Shown here one piece after another: positions 669 to 23,953 of a stretch of DNA of 24,721 nucleotides; position 1 is the first letter of the stretch; each line of letters begins with the position of its first letter. The position numbers and the translations under genes were made by a program. A model generated the notes under the pieces. It had not been told where the DNA came from, did no database searches, and worked only from the letters and a program-made list of their open reading frames with translations. The DNA is taken from the IMG/VR virus record IMGVR_UViG_3300020045_005344, positions 1 to 24,721 of that record, one strand, 5' to 3'. The stretch comes from a virus (Duplodnaviria > Caudoviricetes).

Positions 669-963
669 CAACGCTTACTATCTTAGATGTTAATTCACCT
701 GATATATTTACACCTTGTCCTGCTTTGTCTTCCGCCATTTCCCATATAGTTTTGTGGTCTACACTGTTTAGAAAGGCTATTCTATCTTCATCAGGCATAC
801 TCTCAAGATATTCTCTAGCATAAGACTTCATTGATTTAGAGCCTTTGGGTCTACCTCCTGGATTAGCATTGTTACCTACCTTGAATACATATTTCCTTAG
901 TTGTGGAGGAACCTTATCATAACGCTTTTCCAGCGATTCTTGCGTTGTTTCTTCATTTTCCAT
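661..963 (-). CDS. terS: Putative terminase small subunit (DUF5681-like)
   Basis: FKVGNNANPGGRPKGSK motif typical of small-subunit N-termini; 100 aa; directly upstream of and overlapping terL. Confidence 0.75.
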   Translation of the reverse strand: MENEETTQESLEKRYDKVPPQLRKYVFKVGNNANPGGRPKGSKSMKSYAREYLESMPDEDRIAFLNSVDHKTIWEMAEDKAGQGVNISGELTSKIVSVDE

Positions 964-2491
964 CTTCTTTTAATTCGCTAATACTTAGTTGTATTGATAA
1001 GAACATTGATGCTGTGCTAACTGCATTTTGTAATACAGTTTTAGTTACCTTTACTGCATCAATGATACCTTCCTTATACATATCTTCCACTACTGTATTA
1101 TCTAATGAGTTATAACCTATTGTCAAGCTGTTTGATTCCTTTATTTTATCAATTATAACATCAGGCGAGCCATTAGAGTTTTCCACAATTTGTCTTAGGG
1201 GAGCTTCGATTGATTTCATGACTAAATTATATCCTTTCTCGTAATCTTCATTAAATGGAGCTGGTATAAATCCTTTGCTAGCGTGAATAAAAGCTACATT
1301 CCCACCCATTACAATACCTTCCTCTAAAGCTCTCTTGGTCTCGTTCACACCATCTTCTATTTTAAGTTTAAGATATTTAATCTCTGTTTCGCTATTAGCT
1401 CCTACTTTAATAACTGCTATGCCGTTCTGTAGTTTAGCTACTCTTTCATCGTATTGGTCTTTCTCCCATTTATTTTCAGTGAGTTCTCTGCGTGTTTTGA
1501 GTGTTGTTATCCAGGTCTTTAAATTACCGGCACCCATTATTACACTAGAATCCTTTTTGGCTACGATTTTCTTTATGTAGCCTAGTTGTATCTTGTCCTT
1601 TTTAATGTCCTTAACCACTTCAGCGCCTGTTAGAGCGCACAAGTCTTCAACACAAAACTTCTTCATGTCCCCTATGCCTGGTGTTTTAATTGCTAGTGCC
1701 TTGAATAGTCCATTAAACTTAGCAAAAGCTAATATGCGTAGCACTGATTCATCTACATCTTCAGCTATGATTAGGAGCTCTTTCTTGCCGTCTTTTACCA
1801 TTTTGTCTATCAAGGGCTTAATCTCTCCAAAGTCTTGTAGTTTGTTTTCTAGTATGAGCACATTCACTTCTTTGAACACAGCTTCTAGTTTCTCGTTGTC
1901 AGTTACCATGTAAGGCGAAAGATAACCTTTGTCAAACTTTAGTCCTTCAGCCACTTCGCTGGTAATACCAAATGCTTGTGACTCTTCTACTGTTACCACA
2001 CTGTCTAGCCCAACCTTTTCAATAGTCTTAGCAATAACCTCTCCTAGCTCTGCACTCTCAGTTGAGATAGTGGCCACTTCTTTTAAGTGTCCTTTAACTG
2101 GCTTAGCCATTTTGGTGAGTTCTGCTGTGATGTCCTTTACCGCAAGCTCCATGCCTTTCTTGATTTGATTAGCATTAAAGCCACGCTCTAGTAGGTTGAG
2201 TCCTGTTTGGCATAGCTCTCGGTATAGGATTGCACATGCTGTACGTCCACCACCTACCTCACTACTTATCTTGCGCACCATGTTACGTACCTTAGTAGCG
2301 CCTTTGTTTTCTATTGGGTCTTTTAGAGTGATGTCTTCAGCTATGCGCTTACCATCGTTGACTATATCCCCGTTAGTAAGGCACACGTTCTTGCCACGTG
2401 GGCCTATCGTAATTGCCATGATGTCTACTACCTTGTTAATCCCATCCAACTGCTTGTGCTTAGCCTTGTTTAGTTCTATTACTTTTGCCAT
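953..2491 (-). CDS. groEL: Phage-encoded group I chaperonin (GroEL/Cpn60-like), divergent ATP-binding motif
   Basis: TIGPRGKNV, VVTVEES, EGLKFDKGYLSPYMVTD, LLIIAEDV, ERVAKLQNGIAVIKVGA, KIED...ALEEGIV.GG and GIIDAVKV motifs. GDGTTT is replaced by GGGRTA and there is no GGM tail. Confidence 0.93.
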   Translation of the reverse strand: MAKVIELNKAKHKQLDGINKVVDIMAITIGPRGKNVCLTNGDIVNDGKRIAEDITLKDPIENKGATKVRNMVRKISSEVGGGRTACAILYRELCQTGLNLLERGFNANQIKKGMELAVKDITAELTKMAKPVKGHLKEVATISTESAELGEVIAKTIEKVGLDSVVTVEESQAFGITSEVAEGLKFDKGYLSPYMVTDNEKLEAVFKEVNVLILENKLQDFGEIKPLIDKMVKDGKKELLIIAEDVDESVLRILAFAKFNGLFKALAIKTPGIGDMKKFCVEDLCALTGAEVVKDIKKDKIQLGYIKKIVAKKDSSVIMGAGNLKTWITTLKTRRELTENKWEKDQYDERVAKLQNGIAVIKVGANSETEIKYLKLKIEDGVNETKRALEEGIVMGGNVAFIHASKGFIPAPFNEDYEKGYNLVMKSIEAPLRQIVENSNGSPDVIIDKIKESNSLTIGYNSLDNTVVEDMYKEGIIDAVKVTKTVLQNAVSTASMFLSIQLSISELKEDGK

Positions 2492-2718
2492 ATGATATTT
2501 GAAAGACTAACTAATTGTAAATCCTCACCATCAAGAGATACCTTGTTGCCGTATTGGTAGGCTATCTCATCACCTTTCTTGAAAGATACTTCCTCATCCT
2601 CTATTTTGCCTTTAAATGGAAACATCAGCGTGCCGATTTTGATGGCGTCTTTGTCAGTGTAGCCACCGATTCCTTCTTCTTGTTTGACTTCCTTTAGTAA
2701 TAGTTTAAACGTTCGCAT
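2479..2718 (-). CDS. groES: GroES/Cpn10-like co-chaperonin (79 aa)
   Basis: C-terminal part of ORF 2479..3144, restarted at ATG 2718. FKKGDEIAYQYGNKVSLDGEDLQLVSLSNII fits the GroES C-terminal pattern; overlaps the groEL start. Confidence 0.72.
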   Translation of the reverse strand: MRTFKLLLKEVKQEEGIGGYTDKDAIKIGTLMFPFKGKIEDEEVSFKKGDEIAYQYGNKVSLDGEDLQLVSLSNIIWQK

Positions 2719-2725
2719 TAAGTTA

Positions 2726-2754
2726 AGTATATAAAATTGAATAATAAATGTAAA
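2726..2754 (-). promoter_or_regulatory. Sigma70-like promoter for groES-groEL-terS-terL, probably giving a leaderless mRNA
   Basis: TTTACA-17 nt-TATACT, then 7 nt to the ATG at 2718; no Shine-Dalgarno. Confidence 0.6.
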
Positions 2755-2791: not shown

Positions 2792-4330
2792 TTACGATAC
2801 TCGGAACATTCGCGAGGGCAGGATTGGTGTCTGCCCCATTGAGTGTCCAAAGTTGATAGAGGCACAGTCGATGGGCTCGCTCCGCTGATAGTACGGGATG
2901 CCGAGCCTGCCTCGCACGTCCTTCTCCACTTGATTGCGGTGACGAACGAGGTCTTCCGGTGACAGGTGGTCAGTCCACACGTGAGAGATGACCAAAGCGT
3001 TCGGGTCTCCCTTGTAGTAGTCCACCTCGGTCCGGTAGTCCAGTTCCACCTGGTACAGGCGGTCGTGTTCCCCGTTGTAGGCGTGCTTGCAGGTGTAGAC
3101 GAAGGTTGGTTTCCCTTCCAGCGTCTCACCCGTGGGTAGTGCATCGTCGTAGTACGGGCTTCCAGGATAGGGCGTGATGATGGTCACGTCGAAGTCCGGG
3201 GGATTCATGTCGAGCAACCAACGACGTGTCTCGTTGATGGTCTGCTCTGATTCCCCTGGATGTCCAACGCTCATCAGTGCCTTCACCTCTAGGCCGTACT
3301 TGCGGGCGATTTCCACACAGCGGGTATTGTCCTCGCGTGTTGCACGCTTCTTGATGTTCGAGAGGATTCGCGGTGAACCCGACTCAAACCCAATGAGGAT
3401 TTTGCGATAACCCGCCTCGTACATCGCCTTGGCCTGGTCTTCGTTGAACAACTGAGACTTCAGGAAGCCGCGAAGCTTCCAAGTCGTCCCAAGGTCCCGT
3501 TGGGTCTTGGTAATCTTCTCCAAGAACTCCAGGAACTCCTTGTTAACGAGGTTTTGCTCGTCGTCCGAGAACATGAAGCCACGGATGCCGTGAACACGGT
3601 GCATGTGCACCATCTCCTCGATAACCGCATCAGCCCCACGTGTACGAATGTTGCGGAAGCTGGGCGAGTTGCGACCCGCACAGAAACCACACTCGAACGG
3701 ACAGCCGAGCTGCGCCACGATAGACGTTGCCTTGACGCCCTCGATGACGTAGTTGTAGCTGTCGAGGTCCACGAGATGCCGAGCCGGAATCACCGAGTCG
3801 TTCAGCTGTTGTGGGGTCAGGAAGAGAGAATTTCGTTGTCCCTCGTCCTTGAACCCATCAGCGTGCACAACCTTAGGTGCTCCGAACTTGGCTGCCTCGA
3901 AGATGGCGTTTTCGCCGTCGCCTGCCACCAGAGTGCTGAAGATAGACTCAAGGCGTTCAGCCGCGCGGTGAGCACGACCAACCCGTCCCTGTTTCTGTTC
4001 AACTCTCTTAGCAGCATACACCAGCGTTACGTGCGGACCTCCCAGGATGATGTGGGAGAACCTGTCCGCCGAGCGAATCGCGGCTGCAATCTCCACCGCA
4101 GCGGGAAGCTGGGGCGTAGTAGCAGTGATGCCGTAGACATGGTCTCCGACATTTTCAGCGTATTCAGCCACGACCTTCCCATAGTTTGAGTAACCGCAGA
4201 GGTCCAAGTGAGCCACGCTCCACCCAGCCCTCTCCAGTGACCCAGCAACCTTGAGAATGCCGAGGCTGGGGAAGACCCGCTCGTCCATCAGAAATACTGA
4301 CGGCGGGGTAATCAGGGTGATGCTTCGCAC
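2792..4330 (-). CDS. Cobalamin-binding radical SAM protein (class B methyltransferase-like)
   Basis: N-terminal B12-binding domain (PSLGILKVAG, YGITATTPQ, IILGGPHVT, GDGE); CxxxCxxC in GCPFECGFC; IGFESGSPRIL, VGHPGES, TPYPGSP. GTG start with AGGAGG upstream. GC-rich (34/60 in line 3601). Confidence 0.9.
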   Translation of the reverse strand: MRSITLITPPSVFLMDERVFPSLGILKVAGSLERAGWSVAHLDLCGYSNYGKVVAEYAENVGDHVYGITATTPQLPAAVEIAAAIRSADRFSHIILGGPHVTLVYAAKRVEQKQGRVGRAHRAAERLESIFSTLVAGDGENAIFEAAKFGAPKVVHADGFKDEGQRNSLFLTPQQLNDSVIPARHLVDLDSYNYVIEGVKATSIVAQLGCPFECGFCAGRNSPSFRNIRTRGADAVIEEMVHMHRVHGIRGFMFSDDEQNLVNKEFLEFLEKITKTQRDLGTTWKLRGFLKSQLFNEDQAKAMYEAGYRKILIGFESGSPRILSNIKKRATREDNTRCVEIARKYGLEVKALMSVGHPGESEQTINETRRWLLDMNPPDFDVTIITPYPGSPYYDDALPTGETLEGKPTFVYTCKHAYNGEHDRLYQVELDYRTEVDYYKGDPNALVISHVWTDHLSPEDLVRHRNQVEKDVRGRLGIPYYQRSEPIDCASINFGHSMGQTPILPSRMFRVS

Positions 4331-4354: not shown

Positions 4355-5278
4355 CTATATTTTACAACACTTTTCCATGAGCTTCACGAGGTCGAGCTCG
4401 TCTAAGCTCATAGTCTGCGCTCTAGCATATAGGTCACTTTGGGTTAGGAGTTCTTCCGTAACGTCACTCCAGTCATCTACAAACAACACAGGAAAGCCTG
4501 CCATTAACTTCTCATAATAGGGATGTCGTTTCATTACAGGCACACGGCGGAGGTATAGGGCTTCCCATACTCTATGAGTATCCATTCCGTGGCCTTGGGG
4601 ACACAGCATATACTTGTGGTTCTTTATTTCATCTAGGAAGTCTTGGTACTTCTCATAAGGAAAGAACTTAGAGTTCTCATCAAAGCGTGTCGTAACCCAA
4701 TTATTAGTCTCAAACTTAGCTATCGGTTGGCGGTCAGGGTTTCTGCCTATGCCCATGTTTATGTACAGTAATTTTTTGGGTTCTGTATCGTCACCTATAT
4801 TCTGTAGCATTATGTCTAATCTATTATCCTCGTCTGTCATCTTGCGTTGTAAGCCAAACGGGAATGGAACCACTTGGTCAGTGTTATATACTGCGTTGAC
4901 TGCAAATACCTTAGCGACATTTAGGGGTAGTTGTATCTGGTCGTCTATTGGGGTGTCTTCTTGACCTGTGAAAATAATGAAGCCATTGGAAGGAAGTAAG
5001 GAACATAGAGCCAATAGGTTATTAGTCATCATTAGGAAGTTAACAAAACTTTTGTCGTTGTCTGTGTCGGTTTTAACAGGTCGAGCGTAGAGACGTAGGT
5101 TATCTATATAGAGAGTCATAAACTTACCTTCAAACTCTTTGGCCTTGTCTAGGAACTCTCGATTATTAGCATTGGCAAACTTAGTAAACGCACCTGGTAA
5201 TGTATTCCACAAAGAAAAGTGGTCTCCGAATGAGTAGTCAACTGCTTTAGATACATTGTCCCCTGTTATGATTTGCAT
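4355..5278 (-). CDS. Exostosin-like (GT47-related) glycosyltransferase
   Basis: C-terminal KYMLCPQGHGMDTHRVWEALYLRRVPV fits the exostosin-type CPxGxGxDxxRxWEAL pattern. Confidence 0.7.
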   Translation of the reverse strand: MQIITGDNVSKAVDYSFGDHFSLWNTLPGAFTKFANANNREFLDKAKEFEGKFMTLYIDNLRLYARPVKTDTDNDKSFVNFLMMTNNLLALCSLLPSNGFIIFTGQEDTPIDDQIQLPLNVAKVFAVNAVYNTDQVVPFPFGLQRKMTDEDNRLDIMLQNIGDDTEPKKLLYINMGIGRNPDRQPIAKFETNNWVTTRFDENSKFFPYEKYQDFLDEIKNHKYMLCPQGHGMDTHRVWEALYLRRVPVMKRHPYYEKLMAGFPVLFVDDWSDVTEELLTQSDLYARAQTMSLDELDLVKLMEKCCKI

Positions 5279-6039
5279 AGGTGCTTGTATTTCTCTTTAT
5301 TATCCTTTAACCATTGTGGCCATTCAACTTCTGTGACTACAAATTGATACGGCACACCTTGATAGTTGTACGGGCGGCCCAAGAAGTCGTAGCCCTTTTC
5401 CATCCTATCCTTGATTCCATAGCCCTCGAACTTAGAGAGCATCGGGATGACTTCGTTGGAGTGGTCGTAGGCTTCGAGCTTCTTGATTATCTGTTCTACT
5501 CCCCCTTGGTTAGAAAAGTGCCAACCTCCATCTCGTAGAGGGTAAGGTTTCACAGTCCGATTACGCTTATTAAAGTTCGGTCCAATGTTCTTTATCTTGG
5601 TCATCAAAGTACCAGTCCATTCTTCGTTGGATAGGTAGTTTAAATAGTAGGAGTAGTTGTGTTGAATCAGCGTGTGCGGGTCATCGTCAACTTTACTTAG
5701 TATTTCAGGATTCCATATCTCGTCTAGGTCGGAGCAGAAAGCTATGTCATCATCTTTAAATTCTTGTAGTTTATCCTCAATAGCATCGTAGCAGAGGTAG
5801 TGGCGTCTAAATAGGTTCCCATCGTCTACTTCCATGTTTGGTACAACTATGTGTATTATCTTATCGTTCCACTTGGCGAACCGCTCTTTGTTTTCAAAGT
5901 AATACAGGGGTTTGGAGTTACCGCTAAAGGTTTGGTGGGATTCTACAAGAATGAACTTGTCTACGTAAGGACCGAGAATATCGAACCTGAGTTCTAGTAA
6001 ATCCAACTCGTTGAAAAATGTAAATGCGTCTATGACCAT
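5266..6039 (-). CDS. GT17-family glycosyltransferase (MGAT3/beta-1,4-GlcNAc transferase-like)
   Basis: IDAFTFFNELDLLELR, VDKFILVES..TFSG..KPLYY, SDLDEI and GGWHFS motifs. Confidence 0.85.
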   Translation of the reverse strand: MVIDAFTFFNELDLLELRFDILGPYVDKFILVESHQTFSGNSKPLYYFENKERFAKWNDKIIHIVVPNMEVDDGNLFRRHYLCYDAIEDKLQEFKDDDIAFCSDLDEIWNPEILSKVDDDPHTLIQHNYSYYLNYLSNEEWTGTLMTKIKNIGPNFNKRNRTVKPYPLRDGGWHFSNQGGVEQIIKKLEAYDHSNEVIPMLSKFEGYGIKDRMEKGYDFLGRPYNYQGVPYQFVVTEVEWPQWLKDNKEKYKHLCKS

Positions 6040-6686
6040 ATTGTATACAAAGCCCGCTCCACGACCATCGCTTCGCCGGGGTATCTATCCCATTCTAAAT
6101 ACGACCTTAGCTCTTCGTAAAATGACTTTGGGTGTTTCAATATGTTTTCTTTCGGTAAAATATAGTTACTTCCGGGAGCGAAAGGTAGATACTTCATTTT
6201 ATCAATTCCTAAAAGTTTAAGCAAGGGAAAATCATAGTACGTATCAGCAAAGCACCACTGCGGGTCTTTAGTTGGGTGTGATTTTAAAAACGCTGGATAG
6301 TGCAGTTCGTAATACATACCGTCTTTGTAATACGAAAATGGTACTGGCGGTTCCCAGCCCTGTTGGACAAGTATGTTAGTATCACACATTATTTCGGGGT
6401 GGCCTTGAGTAAACAATGGTGTGAATGTAGTGTTATCTTTTACCTTATCGAACTCTACCTTGGTAATGTATTTGGGTAGGTTCGCCTTGGAGTAAAGGGC
6501 GACATCAGGTAGGTTGTCGTAGTTGTCAATGATGTAAGTAAATTTATCGTAGATGTCTGTACCGATGTTGGGTACAACAATACTTCCCTCTAATGGGATT
6601 TCACTGCGGTCGTAAAGAACCACGTCATCTGTGTATTCCTTGACCCACTCTATATCGTGATTGTAGCGTGAGAGAATGTACTTCAT
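6030..6686 (-). CDS. DUF3431-family protein (putative glycosyltransferase-like)
   Basis: SRYNHDIEW, YIIDNYDNLPD, FAPG...KENILKHPKSFY and ERA..IW motifs. Start moved to ATG 6686 (ATGA overlap with the upstream stop). Confidence 0.7.
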   Translation of the reverse strand: MKYILSRYNHDIEWVKEYTDDVVLYDRSEIPLEGSIVVPNIGTDIYDKFTYIIDNYDNLPDVALYSKANLPKYITKVEFDKVKDNTTFTPLFTQGHPEIMCDTNILVQQGWEPPVPFSYYKDGMYYELHYPAFLKSHPTKDPQWCFADTYYDFPLLKLLGIDKMKYLPFAPGSNYILPKENILKHPKSFYEELRSYLEWDRYPGEAMVVERALYTIWS

Positions 6687-7450
6687 ATATACGTGAACGC
6701 TTTGTAATAGTTCTGTGGATAGTCCCACTTCTTTATGTTGTAGCGATTCCAATATCGTGGAGCTATTGTTAGTCCGCCATTCATAAGGCGAGGTAAAACA
6801 TAAAAAGAAGAGTTGGCTATAATGGCATACTTAGCCCACCTTACTGCTTGCCAGTTTTTCTCTACATCGTGAATGATGTTAGCTAGTGGAAAGAACTGTT
6901 TAGCTAAGATAGGGTCGTCAGTGTGAACCTCGAATCTCATTAAAGGATTTATGTACATCATCTGTTGCATTGCGCGGTCGTAGTATTCTTGCGGTAAACC
7001 AAGTTCGGGTACAGTGTAGTATTCCCCACCACGAAAACCTATTACGCATGTGTCATCAGGAACGTCTAACGGCTTGGTTGCTAACCATTCCTTTATGTCA
7101 TCTAGGTGGTCTATAAAATACTTCTCATCTTCAAAGTTGCCATCTATAATGGTATCGTCTTCTACAAAGTTAAAATCAGGGTCATAGGTGTTTTTATCCC
7201 ATTCTTCCCATAAAGCAAGTTTTTTTTGTGGGTGAATTATACCTGTAATTTTACCTGACGGTTCTTCTGTGATAAATTTTAAATCAATATCATAACCCAA
7301 ATCCAAATTCATAAAGGAAGAACCTTTAAATCCCTGAGTATTTATCATTGAAAAATCATAACCTTTCTCTTTGGCCAACACCCTAGTAGCTACATACCTA
7401 TGTAGTTGGTTGCCTAGCCCACTTCCTTTGTGAAATATGCCGTAAATCAT
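6683..7450 (-). CDS. GT11-like glycosyltransferase (alpha-1,2-fucosyltransferase family), variant donor motif
   Basis: GSGLGNQL, GNFEDEKYF, GFRGGEY (variant of HxRRGDY) and IIANSSF motifs. Confidence 0.75.
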   Translation of the reverse strand: MIYGIFHKGSGLGNQLHRYVATRVLAKEKGYDFSMINTQGFKGSSFMNLDLGYDIDLKFITEEPSGKITGIIHPQKKLALWEEWDKNTYDPDFNFVEDDTIIDGNFEDEKYFIDHLDDIKEWLATKPLDVPDDTCVIGFRGGEYYTVPELGLPQEYYDRAMQQMMYINPLMRFEVHTDDPILAKQFFPLANIIHDVEKNWQAVRWAKYAIIANSSFYVLPRLMNGGLTIAPRYWNRYNIKKWDYPQNYYKAFTYI

Positions 7451-8079
7451 TTCATTAAAGCTCTATACTGCTCATTACGACCTGGGTAATTGTCTGCCAT
7501 ATGGAAAGCAAAAGGTGATTCTACGTCTTGATTCTCTGGTATATCCATCTCTCTACTAAAGTATTTAGCCATCTCTATTGGAGCATAGCGTGCCCCATAG
7601 TGTTGAAAAAGCCTGCGGTTATGACAGGTTAAGAATCCATCCTCGTTAGTATTACCAAAATAAGAACGCCACGTTACCTCTAGTTGATAGGGTAAGTGCA
7701 ACATCTCTTTACTACGTATGCTGACACTGTTACCCACCCGTACTATCTCGCCATCTGGTGTCCGGTAAGAGTAGTCATCAGTCGGTAGGGGCCACGGTGC
7801 ACCGATATAGTCGTAGTTTAGAAATTCCGGCTTCCACGATTCAGGATTCACTACAAAGCCATCGGGGTGTACTAGCATACAGAAATCTGTATCTACAAAC
7901 TTTCGTAAATCAAATATGATAGCGTGGTTCCACTCATCGATACTGTTGCATTGAATATGTGTAATGAGTTTAACTGCCCCCCACGTTATGCCTTTACTGC
8001 TCTGCTCTAGGGCGTTATACATTCCCTCTATGTTCTTTGTGCCTAGGGCTATGAGTGTGACTCTAGGAAGTTGAAGCAT
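7447..8079 (-). CDS. DUF5672-family protein (putative glycosyltransferase)
   Basis: LVHPDGFV, FLNYDYIGAPW, VGNS.SIRSK, NEDGF and FAFH motifs. Confidence 0.72.
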   Translation of the reverse strand: MLQLPRVTLIALGTKNIEGMYNALEQSSKGITWGAVKLITHIQCNSIDEWNHAIIFDLRKFVDTDFCMLVHPDGFVVNPESWKPEFLNYDYIGAPWPLPTDDYSYRTPDGEIVRVGNSVSIRSKEMLHLPYQLEVTWRSYFGNTNEDGFLTCHNRRLFQHYGARYAPIEMAKYFSREMDIPENQDVESPFAFHMADNYPGRNEQYRALMK

Positions 8080-9229
8080 AGTAATCTTTAAAAACTTTAA
8101 TAATATAATCTAAGTCAGATTTTTTAAGCCTAGGATGAACTGTTATCCAAAAAGAGTGTTTGAGTATTACGTCTGCCTCTCTTAAAACTCCACTTACTTT
8201 ATACTCACTGTCTTTGTAGGCTGGATGCTTGGTAATGTCGCCTGAGAACATACTGCGAGTTTCTATCCCATGTTTTTCCAAGTGTGCTACCAGGGGTCCC
8301 CTCTTACCAACAGTGCTTAATGGAAAGGCAAACCAACACACATCGGCTTCAGGCAACCATTCTGGCATTATTAAGTTTTCTACTTCTCTTAGATTCTCGT
8401 ACAGATAATTAAAGTTCTTCTTTCTAAGCCTCTTTATCTTATTAGACTTACGTAACTGCACTCTACCCATAGCTGCTTGAAGCTCTAGGATTTGGAAGTT
8501 GTAGCCGATTTTGTCGTAGACGAACCTTGGGTTGTAGTCTTGCGGGAGTGCTTTGTATTTATTCGGGTTAGTTGTATTAGCTTGCCGTCCCCAATCACGG
8601 TATATTCTAATTTTTTCGGCGAGCTCTTTCGAGTTAGTGAAGATTCCCCCACCCACTCCCATGGAGACGATGTGAGCAGCATGGAAAGAGGTAATCGAGA
8701 CATCACCAAAGGACCCAACTTTTCTTCCGTTAATTGTGCTTCCCCAGCCGTCGCAATTATCTTCGATGACTTTGACATTATGTTTCTTAGCCACCTTCAT
8801 TAGTTTAGGCATATCACAGGGATTGCCCACTGCATGAACGGCTATTATTGCACCCGTTTTACTTGTAATCGCACGTTCGACTTCTTCTACGTCAAAGTTA
8901 TATGTGCCTATCTTAGCATCCACCACAACAGGAACCAGATTGCACTGGAGTATGATATTGAAAATAGTTGGAAAAGTAACGGCTGAGATGATAACTTCCG
9001 ACCCTTTAGGAAGCTCCAAAGCAGATAGAGCAAGTAACCCAGCACAAGAACCAGAGGTAGTGAGTACACCATATTTAACTCCAAGAAATTTAGCAGCTTC
9101 TTCCTCCATCGCTTTCGCTTCGGGACCAGTCTGCCAATTCCCTGTCTTATTAGACTTGTAAATCGACTTTATAATTGCTTGCATTTCAGCTTTACCCGTT
9201 AGGGCACCGCCGTATCTTAGGTCTCTCAT
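8063..9229 (-). CDS. DegT/DnrJ-fold PLP/PMP enzyme, RfbH/ColD-type NDP-4-keto-6-deoxyhexose 3-dehydratase
   Basis: VHAVGNP, IEDNCD, SFHAAHIVSMGVGG (His at the usual Schiff-base Lys position), RDWGR, GYN and GIETR motifs. Confidence 0.82.
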   Translation of the reverse strand: MRDLRYGGALTGKAEMQAIIKSIYKSNKTGNWQTGPEAKAMEEEAAKFLGVKYGVLTTSGSCAGLLALSALELPKGSEVIISAVTFPTIFNIILQCNLVPVVVDAKIGTYNFDVEEVERAITSKTGAIIAVHAVGNPCDMPKLMKVAKKHNVKVIEDNCDGWGSTINGRKVGSFGDVSITSFHAAHIVSMGVGGGIFTNSKELAEKIRIYRDWGRQANTTNPNKYKALPQDYNPRFVYDKIGYNFQILELQAAMGRVQLRKSNKIKRLRKKNFNYLYENLREVENLIMPEWLPEADVCWFAFPLSTVGKRGPLVAHLEKHGIETRSMFSGDITKHPAYKDSEYKVSGVLREADVILKHSFWITVHPRLKKSDLDYIIKVFKDYYASTS

Positions 9230-10335
9230 ATGTGTTTACGTGAAATCCACTCAGGATGCTCCTGCTGCCACTTGATTGTCTCCCTTAGTGAATCCTCAAA
9301 TGAAACTGGCGACTTCCAGCCCATCTTTTCTAATTTGGTATTATCCAATCCATAATGAGGGTCGTGACCAGGTCGGGTTTGGTGGAAGTTAGTCAGCTTG
9401 TATTTCAGTTCTTTGCCCATTAGCTTGGCTATGAGTTGTGCAAGTTCTAGGTTGTCTAGTTGTTTATCCCCGGCGATGTTGTATCTATCGGGTACATCAG
9501 CTTGCCCCGCTTTGTGCATATACACTGGTTGCTTTAGAATGAACAGTAGTGCATCCGCAGCGTTGCGTGAGTGAATGTAGGAGCGTGAACCTATATCTCC
9601 GTTCTCGTTGCCGTGAATTGTTATCTCCTCTCCAGCAGCGATGGCCTTCTGTATCATCACCGGATATTTGAATGGCTGTTGCATCTCGCCAAAGTTATTC
9701 ATCGTGTTGGTGATAACTACGGGTACGTTGTAAGTCCTCCAGTAAGCTATACAAATCATCTCCTGACATGCCTTAGAAGCTGCATAAGGATTAGATGGTA
9801 CTTGGGGCGCCCACTCTTTATAGCCGTCATCCTTGCCTGTGGTTGGGCCGTATACCTCGTCTGTAGAAAACTGAATAAACTTTTCGGGTTTGGCTTCTTT
9901 GGCGTACTCCAACATGTTTATCATCAGAGCCACGTTGTTGCGTATGAATGAGTCTGGGTTATGTATGCTATCCTCCACGTCCGACAATGATGCAAGGTTT
10001 ATCACGTAGTCTATGTGGCCTATCTTTTCTCTAGTGAGGGGTGATATAGGAGCCGAGATGTCGTGCGTCACCATGTTTAAACGAGGTGCCCAATCTGGGT
10101 GGTCTGCTAGGGTAAGAGCAATCCTGTCTACTAAACCCTTATGTCTAAAGCTCCCTATACCCACCACTTGCCAATCCGTATTGTGCATGATGTGAGCGAA
10201 CACGTGAATTCCGATACTTCCTGCTATTCCTGTTAGTAAAACTCGTTTCGGTTGTTCTTGTTTAGGAGTTTTGTTCCAGTAACTATCGTCCCAAGGATTA
10301 CCAGTTGTTATTAAATTTAAATATGGGTTAGTCAT
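9226..10335 (-). CDS. NDP-glucose 4,6-dehydratase (RmlB/RfbB-like SDR)
   Basis: LLTGIAGSIG, NLASLSDV, FSTDEVYG, PSNPYAASKA, NNFG..Q and RPGHD..Y motifs. Confidence 0.88.
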   Translation of the reverse strand: MTNPYLNLITTGNPWDDSYWNKTPKQEQPKRVLLTGIAGSIGIHVFAHIMHNTDWQVVGIGSFRHKGLVDRIALTLADHPDWAPRLNMVTHDISAPISPLTREKIGHIDYVINLASLSDVEDSIHNPDSFIRNNVALMINMLEYAKEAKPEKFIQFSTDEVYGPTTGKDDGYKEWAPQVPSNPYAASKACQEMICIAYWRTYNVPVVITNTMNNFGEMQQPFKYPVMIQKAIAAGEEITIHGNENGDIGSRSYIHSRNAADALLFILKQPVYMHKAGQADVPDRYNIAGDKQLDNLELAQLIAKLMGKELKYKLTNFHQTRPGHDPHYGLDNTKLEKMGWKSPVSFEDSLRETIKWQQEHPEWISRKHI

Positions 10336-10900
10336 ACTTCTTTCTAATTAAATTATGTTCTGCTAATTTCTCTTCGTCTGTTAAAATGTGGGTCATCTGA
10401 TGGTCGCCGACTCCAATGTTCACCCCTATGCTATCTAAAATTTTAGGTGGACCGTACTCGTCGTACATTCGCCTATAAAGGTCGCAATCTAACAACCACG
10501 ACATTCTTTCATCAAACATCAGTGCGGTGCTTTTACGCATCGTGAGAGCCGAGGGGGAGCCAAGCTTGTTGTTTCCAGTTTCAATGTCGTCCGTCCAGTA
10601 AGGGTGAGGGTTCGTGTCCGCTCCAGTGATGAGCCATTCGTCCATAAATTCAAAGTTGTTCCAGATGTCTTGCAGTGCGTTTGGGTGGGCAAGAAAATCA
10701 TCCATGTATAAAATCTTGACTAGGGTTCCTTCTGCCTTCTTGATTGCGCTGTTGGTGTTTTCTGCCATCTTGCCATCCTCTGTAACCACAAGTTCCCAAT
10801 CTTGAAACGTCTGTGACCTTACAGAGTTCAATGCACGCTCTAAAAAGAACTCTTTGTTCTTCATGTTATGTGTGGGAATACAAACTGAAATCTTAGGCAT
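10328..10900 (-). CDS. GT2-family glycosyltransferase
   Basis: KISVCIPTHN, ALNSVRSQTFQDWELVV, N.AIK.A.G..VKILYMDD and FDE....LLDCDLY motifs. Confidence 0.82.
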   Translation of the reverse strand: MPKISVCIPTHNMKNKEFFLERALNSVRSQTFQDWELVVTEDGKMAENTNSAIKKAEGTLVKILYMDDFLAHPNALQDIWNNFEFMDEWLITGADTNPHPYWTDDIETGNNKLGSPSALTMRKSTALMFDERMSWLLDCDLYRRMYDEYGPPKILDSIGVNIGVGDHQMTHILTDEEKLAEHNLIRKKYD

Positions 10901-11285
10901 CAGATATTCTTTTTCTTAGCGCACTCGTACTAAAGTTGTGTCTTCGGGAAGTGTATATAAGTTTAATTGGTAAATCACTGCCGGTAAAAGGTTTACCTAT
11001 GTAGTCCTCTCCAATAAAGCGTACATCTGGTCGAATCACTTGGAGTAAGTTGATTACATCCTCTTCTGTGTCGTAAGGGATAATTTCATCTACGAATCTA
11101 CATCCTTTGAGCTGTACGTATCTTTCAAATATAGTCTGTACTGGCTTGTTTTTATGGGGGCGGTCAATAGTGGGGTCACTTTGTAAACCTACTGTCAGGT
11201 GGTCGCATTGACTACGTGCTTCCTCTAGCATTGCAATGTGTCCACTATGTAATAAATCGAAAGATGATAAGACTATTCCTCTCAT
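10893..11285 (-). CDS. TagD-like cytidylyltransferase (HxGH nucleotidyltransferase)
   Basis: SFDLLHSGH, LTVGLQSD, ER...L..CRFVDEIIPY and R.HNFSTS motifs. Confidence 0.85.
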   Translation of the reverse strand: MRGIVLSSFDLLHSGHIAMLEEARSQCDHLTVGLQSDPTIDRPHKNKPVQTIFERYVQLKGCRFVDEIIPYDTEEDVINLLQVIRPDVRFIGEDYIGKPFTGSDLPIKLIYTSRRHNFSTSALRKRISDA

Positions 11286-11923
11286 AATATGTTTAAGAGG
11301 TCTGTGGGATTTTTGACCTCAATACACTTCATTACTCCTAATACACTCTCGTCATTGCCCCCTTCTTTAAAGTTGTCGCCATAGTAGATACAGTCTTCTT
11401 TTTTTAATAGATGGAGTTTCATGTAGCGCTTTAAGTTGTCGCCTTTGAGATTACCTTTTCTATTATAGTCTAAACACGTAGTACCCGCAACACGTACCAT
11501 CAGAGTCTTGCTCTTGAAGGGTATCTCTTTAAGGAGTTCGGTTCGGTATCTCCCATTCGGGTCAAATAGCTTCTTCCAGTTTACGTCCGCATCGTGTCCC
11601 GTGAAAGAGAATGAAATCTGGCATCCCCTATTTTGAGTAGTTACTGCATCTACTGGTATATTTGCGTGCCGGGATATTTGATGAAGGTGTTTGTGTATCT
11701 CTAAAATCTCTTTTGGGGTCAGCTTATTATACCAGTCAGGGGCTTCGTTGCCGTTCTGTCCCATTATGATACAAGGCAGTCCGTCCATCTGTTTCTCTAT
11801 ACGTTTCTTTTCACCCCCAGATATGACTATGAAGGTGGGGCGGACACGTAGCTTCTCTTTCATCTCGGGTGAGATTACCTGTCGTGATTCGCAAATCGTG
11901 TTATCCAAATCAAATATTTCCAT
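11282..11923 (-). CDS. HAD-IIB hydrolase, eukaryote-type phosphomannomutase-like
   Basis: FDLDNT (DxDxT), ISGG, NRGCQISFS, AGTTCLD and YYGD.F..GGND motifs. Confidence 0.75.
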   Translation of the reverse strand: MEIFDLDNTICESRQVISPEMKEKLRVRPTFIVISGGEKKRIEKQMDGLPCIIMGQNGNEAPDWYNKLTPKEILEIHKHLHQISRHANIPVDAVTTQNRGCQISFSFTGHDADVNWKKLFDPNGRYRTELLKEIPFKSKTLMVRVAGTTCLDYNRKGNLKGDNLKRYMKLHLLKKEDCIYYGDNFKEGGNDESVLGVMKCIEVKNPTDLLNIL

Positions 11924-12596
11924 TGATGTAATCTATTACGTTTACTTTTGGTACCCAGTTAGGGGTGGTGTTTGGTAATGTTGATTCTCTCTGTTCCTTG
12001 CGGGCTTCTTTAAAAATTACTTTCTTACCCTCGGCGAGCTGTATGAGGTTGGTTGCAATACCACTTCCTAACATATATTCGCCTGCGGGCCATTCTTGGG
12101 CCTTGTAGAGCCCTTCTACGATGTCATCCACGTGCACGTAGTCCCGTGTCTGTAAGCCATCGCCGTAAATGATAACCTCGTCCTTGTCCTTGAAGATGTC
12201 GACCACACTTCTTGGGATACCAAAGATGTTGGGAAAGTAGAGTATCACTGCGTTTTTGTGAAAGCGTTTTAGATACTCGTTACAGGCGAACTTTGAGAAC
12301 CCATAGGGGGACACAGGGTCAAGGGAAGCCCCAGTAGAGGCAAATATTATCTTGGCATTAGGATAGTGGTGGACCAGACGTACTGTAGTCAAAAGATTCT
12401 CCATCGTCCTTACAGGGTCTTTCCACGAGTCTTCAACAGGTGCGTGGGCTGCGAGGTGAAAGATAGTGTCTACGTTGTCGGGTAGCTCACAAGTTATTAA
12501 ATTCTTACCATCCTTGGTATCAACGCCTACAAAATTATCTAGTCGTTTGGCGAGCTTACTACCGATGAATCCTTTGTGTCCTGTTAAGAAGAGCAT
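11910..12596 (-). CDS. NAD-dependent epimerase/dehydratase/reductase (compact extended SDR)
   Basis: LTGHKGFIGS, IFHLAA, SPYGFSK (YxxxK) and IYGDGLQTRDYVHVDD motifs. Start moved to ATG 12596. Confidence 0.85.
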   Translation of the reverse strand: MLFLTGHKGFIGSKLAKRLDNFVGVDTKDGKNLITCELPDNVDTIFHLAAHAPVEDSWKDPVRTMENLLTTVRLVHHYPNAKIIFASTGASLDPVSPYGFSKFACNEYLKRFHKNAVILYFPNIFGIPRSVVDIFKDKDEVIIYGDGLQTRDYVHVDDIVEGLYKAQEWPAGEYMLGSGIATNLIQLAEGKKVIFKEARKEQRESTLPNTTPNWVPKVNVIDYINGNI

Positions 12597-13546
12597 AGGT
12601 CGTTGATTATGTCGTCTAGTGAATACTTGTAATCCCAATTCGGATAGTCCTGGCGAAACTTGGAGATGTCGTGTATGTCCCACACCCTGTCACCCTTACG
12701 AGGCTCGTGGTGTTCATGGATACATGGTTTGCCGAGTTTCTTAGAAATTAGGTTAGCCGCTTCTATAATGGACACGGCTCGGTCTGGTCCGCCACCGAAG
12801 TTGTATACCGCTCCTACTTTAGGATTCATTATGAACTCATAGCAAGCTGAAACTAAGTCATAGGCATGTATCTGGTCTCGCACAGTTTTACCATTGCCGA
12901 ATATCTTGTATGTTATTCCTTCTTTGATACAGCGGGTAAGGTAAGCCAGGAAGCCGTGCAACTCTGCACCTTTGTGATTCCTTCCTGTGATACAGCCTAG
13001 CCGGAAGCAAGCCGTCTTCATTCCGAAATAATTACCATACTCTTGCGTGTATATATCCGAGGCAGTTTTAGAACATCCAAAAGGTGAACGGCAACCAGCG
13101 AAGTCAAGTCCTAGGTCTTCCTTGAATGGAGTTGTGCCTTTCATGTTCTCTCCATAAACCTTATCCGTAGTTATGTTTACAAACACTGCATCAGGACAAT
13201 ACTTACGTGTAGCTTCTAGGAGAATGACTGCGCCCCGTGCATTTATATCAAAATCCTCTAACACGTGGTCTTTGGAATAGTCGTGACTCGGTTGGGCGGC
13301 CGTGTGTAAAATGGCGTCAAATTTAGTTCTATCTCCCGAACTGTAATTATTAAAAAGTGTATCAATGTGAGACTCGTCTCTTATATCAATAGACATACAC
13401 TCGGCATCTTCTGTTCTAATCACTTTAAAAAATTTAGCGCGTTGGTTATTGTCTATCCCTACGACATCCCATCCTTTTTCTTTAAAGAATTTTACTGCTT
13501 CGATACCTACAAGCCCTAAAGAACCTGTTATTAAAATTTTTGCCAT
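12584..13546 (-). CDS. NAD-dependent epimerase, CDP-paratose 2-epimerase (RfbE)-like
   Basis: ILITGSLGLVG, GIDNN.R, HTAAQPSHD, DFDINARG, TDKVYG, SPFGCSK, QEYG..FGMKTACFR.GCITG and G.ELHGFL motifs. Start moved to ATG 13546. Confidence 0.78.
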   Translation of the reverse strand: MAKILITGSLGLVGIEAVKFFKEKGWDVVGIDNNQRAKFFKVIRTEDAECMSIDIRDESHIDTLFNNYSSGDRTKFDAILHTAAQPSHDYSKDHVLEDFDINARGAVILLEATRKYCPDAVFVNITTDKVYGENMKGTTPFKEDLGLDFAGCRSPFGCSKTASDIYTQEYGNYFGMKTACFRLGCITGRNHKGAELHGFLAYLTRCIKEGITYKIFGNGKTVRDQIHAYDLVSACYEFIMNPKVGAVYNFGGGPDRAVSIIEAANLISKKLGKPCIHEHHEPRKGDRVWDIHDISKFRQDYPNWDYKYSLDDIINDLCSS

Positions 13547-14106
13547 GTTTCCGGCAGAGGGATTGTTCGCCCATCTGCAAACCATTGTGAAGGTGCGACT
13601 ACTTTACCTTCACCTAAATACGAAGCCCAGAATGAGAAAGAGGAGTTCGCCATGATGTGAGCCTTACAGCCCATCATCTTATTAAAATCTTCTATTTCGG
13701 TTTTACCAGAGTTGTAGAACAGTCGGTCGTTGGGAATAAACTTACGTAGGAATTCGTGGACTTGAATCCTATCCTCCCCGTCGTCCCCCTGTCGGTCAGC
13801 ACAGAACACCATAAACTTCTCGTTTGGGAACTCGGCCACGGCTCTCTGGTAGTAGTCGGTTGTTGTAAGGTCTATATAATATGGGTTATTTACGTAATCC
13901 CCCCGGCGGACGTGGAGGGACACGTAGTCGGATTTCTCTACACCCTCTTGTAAAATATGTTTGAGTTCTGGGCGGTACTTATCAAAAATTGTGTAGTCTT
14001 GTAAATAAATGTCGGGCAGTTTGCCTTCACGGACTTGGGAATACAGAAATGCAAACTGAAAGAGCCTATTACCCAACCCTCCCATAAAAGTTCTAACGTC
14101 CCGCAT
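13531..14106 (-). CDS. GT11 alpha-1,2-fucosyltransferase-like glycosyltransferase
   Basis: GGLGNRLFQ, SLHVRRGDY, IMANSSFSFWASYL and VVAP..WF motifs. Confidence 0.9.
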   Translation of the reverse strand: MRDVRTFMGGLGNRLFQFAFLYSQVREGKLPDIYLQDYTIFDKYRPELKHILQEGVEKSDYVSLHVRRGDYVNNPYYIDLTTTDYYQRAVAEFPNEKFMVFCADRQGDDGEDRIQVHEFLRKFIPNDRLFYNSGKTEIEDFNKMMGCKAHIMANSSFSFWASYLGEGKVVAPSQWFADGRTIPLPETWQKF

Positions 14107-14815
14107 TTGGAAAATCCTTAGTTATTTGATTCATAAGTTCTTCGTGATGATTTTGTGCATCGTGAATCATTGATTTTTCTTTAGTGCGATAGAGAACCAG
14201 TATCTCCGGTATTGTTTTAATTGTAGCACCTCTACTTAATAAGTCAAACCATAGGTGGTAATCTTCATAGCCAAAGGTCATTCTTGGGCTATATCCTCCA
14301 CACTCTAATAGTTTTGATTTACGAATAGCGGAGCAGTATGGAATACGGTTTGCCTCTATGAAATCTTTAAAACCAGGATTTCGCATTAACACAATATTTG
14401 TTTGCCTGATACCAAATTCTTTAAACGATGGGGCGACTATATCAGGAGGACAAAATCCTTGTACAACTTCACGTATTCTATACACACACATAGGCATTAG
14501 TATGTCATCAGCATCAAGTGGAAAGAACCACTCCCCCTCGGAGTTCATAATACCTGTATTCCTAGCCGAACTTAGTCCTTTATTGACCTGCGAGATAACT
14601 TTTATGTCTTTAAGCTGTCTTCCTTTGCCTGCATTCTTGTCTGCTAAAAACTTGGCTCTATATTCCTTGGCTATCGTAAGAGAATTATCTGTGCTCCCAT
14701 CATCCACAATTATTAACTCTAATTCTCCAGTATAGAATTCTTGATTCAACACAGACTCAATAGCATCTGGTAAAAATTCTGCCTGATTGTAGCTTGAAAT
14801 TGATATTGAAATCAT
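14093..14815 (-). CDS. GT2-family glycosyltransferase
   Basis: SYNQAEFL..AIESVLNQ, IVDDGSTDNS, NKGLSSARNTG, PLDADD, GGY...GYEDY.LW motifs. Confidence 0.9.
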   Translation of the reverse strand: MISISISSYNQAEFLPDAIESVLNQEFYTGELELIIVDDGSTDNSLTIAKEYRAKFLADKNAGKGRQLKDIKVISQVNKGLSSARNTGIMNSEGEWFFPLDADDILMPMCVYRIREVVQGFCPPDIVAPSFKEFGIRQTNIVLMRNPGFKDFIEANRIPYCSAIRKSKLLECGGYSPRMTFGYEDYHLWFDLLSRGATIKTIPEILVLYRTKEKSMIHDAQNHHEELMNQITKDFPNAGR

Positions 14816-15906
14816 TTTCCTAACATCTTATTTAAATGCTCGCCACCCTCTTTTGATAATGAAAACCACTTTGTGACTGTTATGAGCTTAGGGGGATAAG
14901 AGCAACCCCAGACTATCGGCTCGTAGTATTCCTTTATGAGTGAGTCCGGATAGATGTACGAGGGCGACAACACAGTTTCCGGCTCGTGGTCGAGTAGGTA
15001 TCTGTTCCACGCACTCTCGTCATTCCACCTAGGGATGTAGCCTTTGTTTAAGTCTGTCTCGATTATTTTCTTAGTGCCTTTCATAGCTTCGATGAACTTG
15101 TCCGCCTTACCGCCTTGGAAACCTCCTGCATAGTATAGGGGCAGGAATCTTGTCCCTGTAGGTTGGCCATTAGCTGAGCGAGCCACGGGGTCTTGGACGG
15201 TCTTGCCATTTAACTTTATGTACGAAGCAGACTGTGGGTTGGATTCTATCGGTGGGTGGAGTTCCTTGCGTATGTGGTAGCCGGGGTGTACCGCAGCCGT
15301 GATTCCTTCGTTTAATATCTCATCCCCCACCGGAGCCACGAATTTCATATCCACATCACAGTAGAAAATGTAATCAAACTCTTTTAGCTTATCTTCCTCG
15401 CCAAGAAATAGGTTGTAGCGTAATAGTGTCGGGTAGGGCCAGTCTACCATCTCGGTGGGTATTAGGTGTATGTCCTTTTGCGTCTTTAAGTTTACCACAC
15501 CCTCTATGATAGCGGGAGTGTTGACAACCATGTTTCTACCTTCTAGGCCTATTGCCCCTGACGTTATGTCCATGTCCTTAGTATCTATGCCGATTTTAAA
15601 TAGGGCTTCTTTGTATTTACTGACTATCTCCTCTTTGGTATCGGGTATGTCAGTCCAAAAGAAAAACTCTCGCTCGTGGCCGGGTAGGAAGAACTTGCGT
15701 GCCCCTTGTACCATTTCGTTAGCAAACTCCCAATACAGGGGATTTAAGCATATAAAAACAAAAGCAACCTTAAATTTCTTAAGGTCTTTCTGGGTGGACA
15801 TGTAATTAACAAGGTCTAAGTCAAGTGCCATTCGCTGTAAATCAACAGCGTAGCCCTTGGAGTTGTAGAAGTTATTGATTGACCTTAGAAAATCATCCGG
15901 CGGCAT
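14812..15906 (-). CDS. GT6-family glycosyltransferase (ABO blood-group transferase-like alpha-1,3-GalNAc/Gal transferase)
   Basis: FFLPGH....F.WTD, WPYPTLLRY, FDYIFYCDVDM.F, VGDEIL, HPGY, YYAGGFQGG, WNDESAWNRY and LSPSY.YP motifs. Confidence 0.9.
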   Translation of the reverse strand: MPPDDFLRSINNFYNSKGYAVDLQRMALDLDLVNYMSTQKDLKKFKVAFVFICLNPLYWEFANEMVQGARKFFLPGHEREFFFWTDIPDTKEEIVSKYKEALFKIGIDTKDMDITSGAIGLEGRNMVVNTPAIIEGVVNLKTQKDIHLIPTEMVDWPYPTLLRYNLFLGEEDKLKEFDYIFYCDVDMKFVAPVGDEILNEGITAAVHPGYHIRKELHPPIESNPQSASYIKLNGKTVQDPVARSANGQPTGTRFLPLYYAGGFQGGKADKFIEAMKGTKKIIETDLNKGYIPRWNDESAWNRYLLDHEPETVLSPSYIYPDSLIKEYYEPIVWGCSYPPKLITVTKWFSLSKEGGEHLNKMLGK

Positions 15907-15913
15907 TTATATT

Positions 15914-15941
15914 AGTTTACCACTTATATTTTTAATGTCTA
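15914..15941 (-). promoter_or_regulatory. Putative promoter of the glycan operon, probably leaderless
   Basis: TAGACA-16 nt-TAAACT with TG upstream of the -10 (extended -10), 7 nt before the ATG at 15906. Confidence 0.45.
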
Positions 15942-22098: not shown

Positions 22099-22112
22099 AT
22101 TTAAAGTATAGC

Positions 22113-22337: not shown

Positions 22338-22345
22338 TTTGCCTC

Positions 22346-23933: not shown

Positions 23934-23953
23934 ACTGTGCCTCGTGCGAGGGC

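Follow-up and report, generated by a model that had tools for sequence, protein, structure and literature searches.

Gtr seroconversion cassettes are systems of temperate phages which comprise the membrane proteins GtrA, GtrB and GtrC. In Wzx/Wzy O-antigen loci with 3,6-dideoxyhexose (ddh/rfb) genes, glycosyltransferases (GTs) are combined with an NDP-sugar pathway for the repeat unit. Soluble GTs and nucleotide-sugar enzymes without membrane parts are likewise found in the 'LPS / cell-wall synthesis and modification' clusters of T4-like cyanophages, e.g. the 15-gene cluster of P-SSM2 and those of S-SCSM1 and S-SCSM2R (PMC7824862, PMC12801897). Similar clusters in cyanophages and CPR viruses are mostly read as modifiers of the host surface (PMC7824862, PMC12801897, PMC11310336). 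In mycobacteriophages, Che8 among them, cytoplasmic phage-encoded GTs are reported to glycosylate the capsid, with the capsid protein as proposed acceptor (Freeman et al. 2023, as cited in PMC11256854 and PMC12619734). Phage GT-type genes are often filtered out or tallied as auxiliary metabolic genes (PMC12960796). Whether such clusters are directed at the host surface, the DNA or the virion has been an open question since the P-SSM2 cluster.

The DNA analysed here, called the window, is a phage fragment of 24,721 nucleotides (IMG/VR record IMGVR_UViG_3300020045_005344). It contains a glycan block encoding 7–9 GT-type proteins and six nucleotide-sugar enzymes which, by homology, is related to a bacterial O-antigen pathway but has no genes for a flippase, a polymerase or lipid priming. 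With about even chances, this soluble block builds a branched oligosaccharide on the phage particle, where a family-specific Gly/Ser-rich capsid loop is the predicted acceptor. No account of the phage family or of the module was found in the main texts of the largely open-access literature searched; supplementary tables of groundwater viromes may list such genomes.

Organization of the gene block

The block extends from 15906 to 4355 on the minus strand, and all of the 15 overlapping, co-oriented genes of the original prediction are present. Every one of the 14 junctions overlaps, by 4–17 nt with the start codons selected here. Pfam matches support the YopX, groEL and terL genes named as neighbours, and YopX genes do border the block on one side. 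The supposed direct contact with groES on the other side does not exist, as an overlooked 16th gene (4330–2792) intervenes. The adjoining features are:

15914..15941, minus strand, putative sigma70 promoter (TAGACA-16-TG-TAAACT), −10 box 7 nt ahead of the GT6 ATG
2792..4330, minus strand, B12-binding radical SAM enzyme
2726..2754, minus strand, second putative promoter (TTTACA-17-TATACT), 7 nt ahead of the groES ATG
2479..2718, minus strand, GroES-like co-chaperonin
953..2491, minus strand, GroEL, accessory (4/13 near-complete relatives)
661..963, minus strand, putative terminase small subunit
1..671, minus strand, terminase large subunit (terL), truncated by the contig end

The groES assignment was upheld by profile search alone (E 1e-4), and terS is named from its position and a weak DUF5681 match. 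A single promoter had been proposed for the block. The site in front of GT6 is of the host sigma70 type, and because of the short distance between its −10 box and the ATG a leaderless transcript is predicted. However, 37 such sites were observed where 37.1 are expected by chance, and the promoter/terminator scan gave no excess over shuffled sequences. A loose pattern of the same spacing fits seven of 13 relatives, a count that has no chance control. Scans of the window for tRNAs and meaningful repeats found none.

The radical SAM gene (GC 57 %) possesses its own ribosome site (AAGGAGG) and a downstream hairpin. It occupies the same slot in the relative G011 (74 %) and lies within the module in G018 (50 %). 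Sugar tailoring by C-methylation or deoxygenation is its likely role. Tailoring genes are variable across the relatives and comprise a C-methyltransferase, FkbM, an FdtA-like protein and the radical SAM enzyme.

Sugar nucleotide enzymes

All six predicted sugar-nucleotide enzymes were confirmed:

12584..13546, minus strand, SDR, closest solved relative CDP-tyvelose (paratose) 2-epimerase (E 6e-28)
11910..12596, minus strand, short SDR epimerase/reductase, candidate 4-keto reductase
11282..11923, minus strand, HAD-IIB enzyme, alpha-phosphoglucomutase-like (E 3e-11)
10893..11285, minus strand, HIGH-family cytidylyl/adenylyltransferase, TagD/HldE-like
9226..10335, minus strand, RmlB-like NDP-hexose 4,6-dehydratase
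8063..9229, minus strand, PLP enzyme closest to the E1/RfbH 3-dehydratase

In the PLP enzyme the Schiff-base lysine is replaced by a histidine (SFHAAH) and the Fe-S cysteines are absent. Because of this histidine the label 'DegT aminotransferase' was rejected and a 3-dehydratase is predicted. Judged from their homologies, the sugar enzymes of the block point to a 3,6-dideoxyhexose as product.

Glycosyltransferases and a proposed pathway

The remaining genes of the block encode established or putative GTs:

14812..15906, minus strand, GT6, ABO/BoGT6a-like alpha-1,3 transferase with DxD (CDVD) and WNDES; core, 13/13 relatives
14093..14815, minus strand, GT2a; core, 13/13 relatives
13531..14106, minus strand, GT11a, alpha-1,2 fucosyl/deoxyhexosyl transferase family; core, 13/13 relatives
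10328..10900, minus strand, GT2b, a short GT2; 12/13 relatives
7447..8079, minus strand, DUF5672, putative GT; 11/13 relatives
6683..7450, minus strand, GT11b, divergent GT11-like; 12/13 relatives
6030..6686, minus strand, DUF3431, putative GT; 12/13 relatives
5266..6039, minus strand, GT17, beta-GlcNAc transferase family; 12/13 relatives
4355..5278, minus strand, GT47/RXYLT1-like, below cut-off; accessory, 2/13 near-complete relatives

Seven recognisable GTs and two GT-like DUF proteins had been proposed. GT6, GT2a, GT2b (matching only over residues 5–63), GT11a and GT17 pass the Pfam cut-off, and so do DUF5672 and DUF3431. The other two GTs are weaker cases: GT11b has no Pfam match but resembles PHROG 2644 (E 8e-8) and shows 28 % identity to a bacterial GT11, and the GT47-like protein reaches 16.7 bits with GT47 (cut-off 33.4) and 24.2 bits with RXYLT1_C (cut-off 27), models that match five and six of seven family members, respectively. 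That DUF5672 and DUF3431 are GTs is inferred from gene context. Profile searches of the PDB with both gave no match, and their ESM Atlas matches were restricted to clusters of the same family, mostly viral.

By homology, the phosphomutase and the nucleotidyltransferase would supply an NDP-hexose, which the 4,6-dehydratase, the His-type 3-dehydratase, the reductase and the tyvelose-type 2-epimerase would convert to a 3,6-dideoxyhexose. One GT-A enzyme (GT2a, GT2b or a DUF protein) would prime Ser/Thr; no protein-priming GT was recognised among the block proteins, which weakens the reading of a virion glycan. Chain extension might be performed by GT17, the GT47-like protein and the DUF proteins, GT11 would add alpha-1,2 deoxy-sugar branches, and GT6 would set an alpha-1,3 cap, leading to an ABO-like terminus. 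Tailoring of the product may fall to variable methyltransferases or to the radical SAM enzyme.

Such enzymes could instead produce a free or small-molecule glycan, or glycosylate cytoplasmic proteins of host or phage, as decoy or counter-defence. The solubility of every enzyme fits this idea, and the tailoring genes vary as in a natural-product cluster. It is nevertheless improbable: the block has no linked gene for an aglycone, for export or for a hydrolase, its GTs belong to families of glycan-on-glycan transferases, and the order is fixed beside the packaging genes in most relatives.

Conservation in a phage family

The block is carried by a widespread, uncultured family of small, non-integrating, podophage-like phages with an SU10-type portal/adaptor and an N4-like capsid. 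It occupies about 18–30 % (a fifth to a third) of their genomes of ~38–45 kb. GT6, GT2a and GT11a are present in 13/13 near-complete relatives (38–44 kb) and the long block in 12 of them, usually adjoining the terminase. Of 31 distinct loci in which the sequence upstream of a close terL spans 3 kb or more, 27 contain module genes in that stretch; in G013 the module is separate from terL and in G014 it lies ~4 kb away. A minimal module, composed of GT11-GT6-GT2, one unknown gene and FkbM, exists in G015.

This synteny with the terminase establishes a phage module. The steps in GC content at the radical SAM gene and at 22–23.5 kb (about 50 %) might raise the suspicion that the assembly is chimeric, or that an LPS island of the host was wrongly joined to phage DNA. 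However, G011, a complete relative of 44,046 bp with terminal repeats, keeps the order from GT6 to the radical SAM gene, groES/EL, terS and terL, and the linkage is repeated in dozens of independent contigs, by which this explanation is effectively refuted.

The host probably belongs to the Patescibacteria. The search for a prophage flanked by host DNA gave none. Of the three genome-collection matches to terL, one is a 43.4 kb contig representing a whole family phage within a Cellvibrionaceae bin, another a fragment of 1.8 kb, and the third a distant phage carrying an integrase. Over 79 viral and 80 metagenome loci the largest family contig measures 45.3 kb at most. Tyrosine integrases (PF00589) were detected in 0/17 records (control 14/14) and serine recombinases (PF07508) likewise in 0/17 (control 2/14). 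Since neither an integrase or recombinase nor a longer contig occurs, lasting lysogenic conversion is unlikely; plasmid-like carriage may be compatible with the missing integrase.

Comparison with O-antigen and cyanophage loci

The predicted lack of transmembrane segments in the block was borne out, at the level of a crude hydropathy test, by a maximal KD19 value of 1.75 versus 2.19 for the holin and 2.50 for the SLT protein of the window. The same holds for the missing Wzx flippase (PF01943; 0/15 relatives, control 13/14; none among the window proteins) and undecaprenyl-phosphate priming transferase (PF02397; 0/15 relatives, control 9/14). By crude hydropathy, no module protein of the window and 13 relatives has more than one hydrophobic window, as would be expected of a polytopic Wzy-type protein, and the module of the window holds no GtrA/GtrB/GtrC-like membrane protein. 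A WecA/MraY-type priming transferase would be polytopic as well, and the same crude measure revealed no such module protein.

These data bear on the main rival to virion glycosylation, a re-dressing of the host surface, which is possible but rather unlikely. Here the soluble GTs would act on lipid-linked repeat units of the host or on glycans of its surface proteins, by means of the host priming enzyme and flippase, and would block superinfection or change the attachment of an episymbiotic host. Published work customarily reads the GT genes of cyanophages and CPR viruses in this way. It is favoured by a locus on the Pseudomonadota chromosome G270, in which homologous families (E1-type dehydratase, DUF5672, GT17, DUF3431, GT17, GT11, Wzx, a Wzy-like protein, GT2, GT11) occur in similar order. 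Because the homologous GTs of this Wzx/Wzy locus are also soluble, solubility does not discriminate between the readings. In addition, divergence is greater in the module genes (mean identity 0.44–0.53) than in the head genes (0.61–0.66), as in serotype loci. In contrast to the O-antigen loci, the block is phage-borne, lacks Wzx, Wzy, the priming transferase and the E3 reductase, and its E1 homologue has no Fe-S cysteines. Flippases and polymerases are usually unit-specific, and the absence of Wzx and the priming enzyme from the relatives thus counts against a surface role, as does the absence of an integrase, which leaves a short window of benefit. Recent uptake from host chromosomes has left no sign, because the best 120 DUF5672 homologues lie on contigs of ≤62 kb wherever the length is known (118/120). 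DUF5672 was present in five of 400 sampled genomes of the phylum of G006, one of them with the gene in a matching glycan locus, and on G006's own phage contig. Finally, a surface role leaves the capsid insertion described below unexplained.

The cyanophages S-H68 and RN05-S (GenBank) contain GT17, GT11, DUF5672, an E1-type enzyme, a cytidylyltransferase and SDRs at 22–50 % identity, and GT6 exists also in P-SSM2. However, their clusters are sporadic islands in myoviruses of >200 kb, whereas the present block is core, conserved in order, located beside the terminase and paired with a capsid insertion. A GT2 of the block is weakly similar to GtrB-like PHROGs (E 4e-10); unlike Gtr cassettes, the module has no membrane protein, no integrase and far more enzymes.

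DNA modification

Hydroxymethylated bases are known substrates of phage GTs, according to work cited in PMC12619734. Sugar hypermodification of the phage DNA had been named as an alternative, and both this precedent and the position of the block after replication and recombination genes agree with it. The search for base hydroxymethylases speaks against it: the thymidylate-synthase family gave 0/15 relatives (control 10/14), Tet_JBP also 0/15, though its control was silent too, and Pfam scans of the relatives' ORFs found ordinary DNA methylases and no hydroxylase. Palindromes are strongly avoided in 14/14 sequences (6-mer O/E 0.51–0.74). GATC is near zero in six of them, with an O/E of 0.04 in the window and ≤0.02 in five of 13 relatives. 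The near-absence of GATC suggests that the DNA is open to restriction and hence argues against its glycosylation, which is very improbable.

A capsid loop as candidate acceptor

As the window stops inside terL, the evidence on the capsid comes from the relatives. Their HK97/N4-like capsid protein has ~45 extra residues in the E-loop, which are uncharged, rich in Gly/Ser/Ala and missing from the nearest outside capsids. A 142-sequence alignment gave a predicted fold with mean pLDDT 78 and a low-confidence insert (5-sequence alignment, pLDDT 27); a PDB search with the capsid profile returned only spurious antibody matches. S88, S96, S110 and S111 are invariant in 104/104 capsid sequences and may be structural.

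Loop length climbs with the number of GTs, in a series that reflects nested kinship, not independent events. Loops of 16–17 aa belong to the near-complete outside genomes, 7/7 of which have no GT2 or GT4-type match, 19 aa to a subgroup with a GT4-like gene near the head genes, 23 aa to G023 with three GTs, 45 aa to G015 with three core GTs and FkbM, and 59–73 aa to 12 genomes with 7–9 GT-type genes. An exception is locus L313 with a 17-aa loop and yet a GT2 gene. Identities among capsids follow those among GTs only loosely (Mantel rho 0.01–0.33; for terL, too, only 0.12). Ser/Thr content was rejected as evidence, as it does not separate GT-bearing from GT-less phages: whole-capsid Ser+Thr is nearly equal (0.172 vs 0.162), and outside capsids without GTs have 2–8 Ser/Thr in their 17-aa loops.

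In mycobacteriophages, according to PMC12619734, a few GTs act and attachment is C-terminal. Here there are 7–9 GT-type genes, an own supply of rare sugars and a predicted site in the E-loop; the C-termini of the family capsids are short (for example ESAATT) and have no Ser-rich extension.

Conclusions

Virion glycosylation is the best reading, ahead of host-surface remodelling, and is held at even confidence. The question of the acceptor is directly testable by co-expression, because the block is core, the evidence goes against DNA modification and lysogenic conversion, G015 has a minimal version and a specific candidate acceptor is at hand. Compact, soluble enzymes of the families GT6, GT11 and GT17 can moreover be drawn from these phages, which also suggest candidate functions for the DUF5672 and DUF3431 proteins. 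If the virion is indeed the target, complex phage glycan coats would extend far past the actinophages and include self-supplied rare sugars. A more far-reaching reading, less likely than not, is that a large family of podophages infecting ultra-small (Patescibacteria) hosts has turned an O-antigen pathway into a glycan shield of the capsid. All members would carry an ABO-like, variably methylated oligosaccharide with 3,6-dideoxy-sugar tips on a loop that grew together with the enzyme set, and in groundwater and lakes virion 'glycotypes' would represent a core phage trait that diversifies.

The glycan gene block and its neighbours

Every recognisable gene of the window, a linear record of 24,721 bases with an estimated completeness of 57%, lies on the minus strand. 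The predicted 15-gene block is present, and with the starts chosen here all 14 junctions overlap as proposed, by 4-17 nt.

15906-4355, minus strand: 15-gene glycan-building block
4330-2792, minus strand: B12 radical-SAM gene (GC 57%, GC3 0.70), between block and groES

Pfam, PHROG and NCBIfam confirm GT6, two GT2, GT11a, GT17, DUF5672 and DUF3431 as well as the sugar enzymes (three SDRs, a HAD protein, a HIGH nucleotidyltransferase and a DegT-family enzyme). Among the seven glycosyltransferases (GTs) originally counted, the assignment is weaker for GT11b and the GT47-like protein. The absence of obvious transmembrane segments holds (KD19 ≤ 1.75 in every protein). The single promoter ahead of the block is less certain: such sites number 37 against 37.1 expected by chance, but each of the two candidate −10 boxes stands 7 nt upstream of an ATG, and the spacing is alike in some relatives. 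The block does not directly adjoin groES, as the original prediction had it; the radical-SAM gene, which was overlooked, intervenes.

With its strong ribosome site and the hairpin downstream of it, this gene resembles a recently swapped cassette; copies elsewhere have a GC content of 49% (G011, a complete relative) and 55% (relative G018). The groES-groEL pair (953-2718) has its own candidate leaderless promoter, and GroEL occurs between glycan block and terminase in four of 13 near-complete relatives. A second GC-rich patch (22000-23500, about 50% GC) is without family matches; an ORF in it (22740-23213, GC3 0.71) starts with a hydrophobic N-terminal stretch. A holin-like gene and a small SLT transglycosylase, whose N-terminus forms a hydrophobic anchor, stand at 23559-24184 among early-type genes, apart from the structural block.

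Conservation in the phage family

The proposed linkage of GT clusters with terL recurs across IMG/VR: seven loci retrieved by GT6 and 31 by terL contain the same genes in near-identical order. The complete genome G011 (44,046 bp), reached via its radical-SAM gene, keeps this order through to terL. The block is therefore a family trait, and it is extremely improbable that the window is chimeric or otherwise an artefact. In a set of 31 distinct loci with at least 3 kb upstream of terL (terL identity at least 60%), module genes lie upstream of terL in 27; the remaining four include two with the block further away and one 60%-complete record without GT2.

The 13 near-complete genomes were found by GT6 (2), radical SAM (1), terL (3) and capsid (7), four of the last being picked for lack of a visible GT near terL. 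GT6, GT2a and GT11a are present in 13/13, GT2b, GT11b, DUF3431, GT17 and the DegT-family gene in 12/13 and DUF5672 in 11/13. The matched module genes span 7.6-13.1 kb, and only 2.1 kb in G015. Portal and adaptor of SU10 type and a phrog_1357/N4-like capsid give the structural genes a podovirus-like character (best 120 of 1,237 capsid clusters listed). Of 54 GenBank records 20 are listed, and in these even the nearest phages match at 28% at most.

HNH, NUMOD3 and EndoVII homing-endonuclease genes repeatedly sit between module genes (G001, G004, G011, G012, G017, G019). One relative encodes RecA (L152:12114-13031, G017), another an amidoligase and glutamine amidotransferase pair (L148:6001-8222, G014).

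Predicted enzymes and related clusters

The DegT-family protein best matches E1, CDP-4-keto-6-deoxyglucose 3-dehydratase (E 2e-77). Its aminotransferase lysine position is His, which marks 3-dehydratases, and the Fe-S cysteine stretch is absent; ColD functions without Fe-S. Relatives have His in 9/12, Lys in 1/12 and an unmatched motif in 2/12. SDR2 is closest to CDP-tyvelose 2-epimerase, HAD to alpha-phosphoglucomutase, GT6 (DxD present) to BoGT6a and ABO transferases, and radical SAM to the apramycin enzyme of structure 6fd2, presumably AprD4. What fills the accessory slots varies among relatives: radical SAM, an FdtA-like protein, a sugar C-methyltransferase, or FkbM and other methyltransferases. 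Enzyme sets like the minimal trio of GT2, GT11 and GT6 make ABO-like termini. From these similarities we infer that the product would be a branched, variably tailored glycan bearing a 3,6-dideoxy sugar.

DUF5672 was found in five of 400 sampled genomes, all from a single phylum. In one, the Pseudomonadota chromosome G270, it sits in a classical locus (gene names inferred from Pfam):

gmd-/fcl-like, ddh genes, DUF5672, GT17, DUF3431, GT17, GT11, Wzx, Wzy-like, GT2, GT11

Synechococcus phages S-H68 and RN05-S share families with the block and likewise lack membrane genes. These clusters and the G270 locus relate the module to the cytoplasmic half of a repeat-unit pathway. Clusters of this kind are already known in phages, according to PMC7824862, PMC12801897, PMC11310336 and PMC12647753; the block is a real feature and a variant of this type. 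A 642-kb uncultured phage (LR756502.1, 444210-450938) has GT6, DUF5672 and GT17 homologues within about 7 kb.

Host

Three indirect signs point to Patescibacteria as host. TGA interrupts 28 of 57 outside capsid genes (sister lineage, L288-L347), with Gly as the consensus residue of the alignment column for 123 of the 165 positions concerned. TGA = Gly is the Gracilibacteria/SR1 code; the sister phages are recoded and probably have such hosts. In the window's own family the code is standard. Only 5/81 capsid genes of the family are preceded by a 5-nt Shine-Dalgarno motif, and 35/80 metagenome record names contain '01um', taken as the 0.1-micron fraction. One whole family phage (L039, G006:C56, 43,426 bp) lies inside a Cellvibrionaceae MAG, probably a mis-bin.

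Candidate acceptors of the glycan

Phage DNA is a very unlikely acceptor: the search of 15 records for base-hydroxylating enzymes gave no hit to the thymidylate-synthase family (control 10/14) and none to Tet_JBP, for which the control set was silent too, and palindromes are strongly avoided (GATC O/E 0.04 in the window). Remodelling of the infected-cell surface is possible though rather doubtful. Soluble GTs are normal in O-antigen-type loci, so modification through host machinery could occur, but complete O-antigen replacement is disfavoured by the absence of Wzx, covered by the flippase check, and of a priming transferase from 15/15 records, and of integrases from 17/17. Another soluble product is improbable.

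That the virion carries the glycan is about an even call. The capsid gene lies outside the window, and the capsid evidence rests on relatives. Their predicted capsid has an HK97/N4-like fold (pLDDT 78) with a loop that we read from the fold as a putative E-loop on the outer surface; it carries a Gly-rich, near-uncharged insert containing four invariant serines (104 sequences). The loop measures 59-73 residues in the family versus 15-19 in outside capsids. GT2 and GT4-type matches are absent from 7/7 near-complete short-loop genomes (G026, with an only distantly related capsid, was excluded). Intermediates are G023 (23 residues, three GTs) and G015 (45 residues, reduced GT set). Against the virion count that Ser/Thr numbers fail to separate the groups, that one 17-residue-loop locus carries GT2, that the loop-length/GT series is phylogenetically nested, that capsid-GT correlations are weak, that the block is apart from terL in two genomes and that no priming GT was identified.

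A GT-less relative (G025) has a 499-aa protein, ATP-grasp/PurD-like by eye, among its late genes (L185:4978-6477). In the 19-residue-loop subgroup 7/10 distinct loci have a GT4-like gene near head genes, and small GT4/GT2 sets lie among terminase, portal and head genes in L163:2331-5183 (G023), L291, L293, L297-L300 and L304. Since this set in related phages is a different one, head genes acquired neighbouring GTs on more than one occasion.
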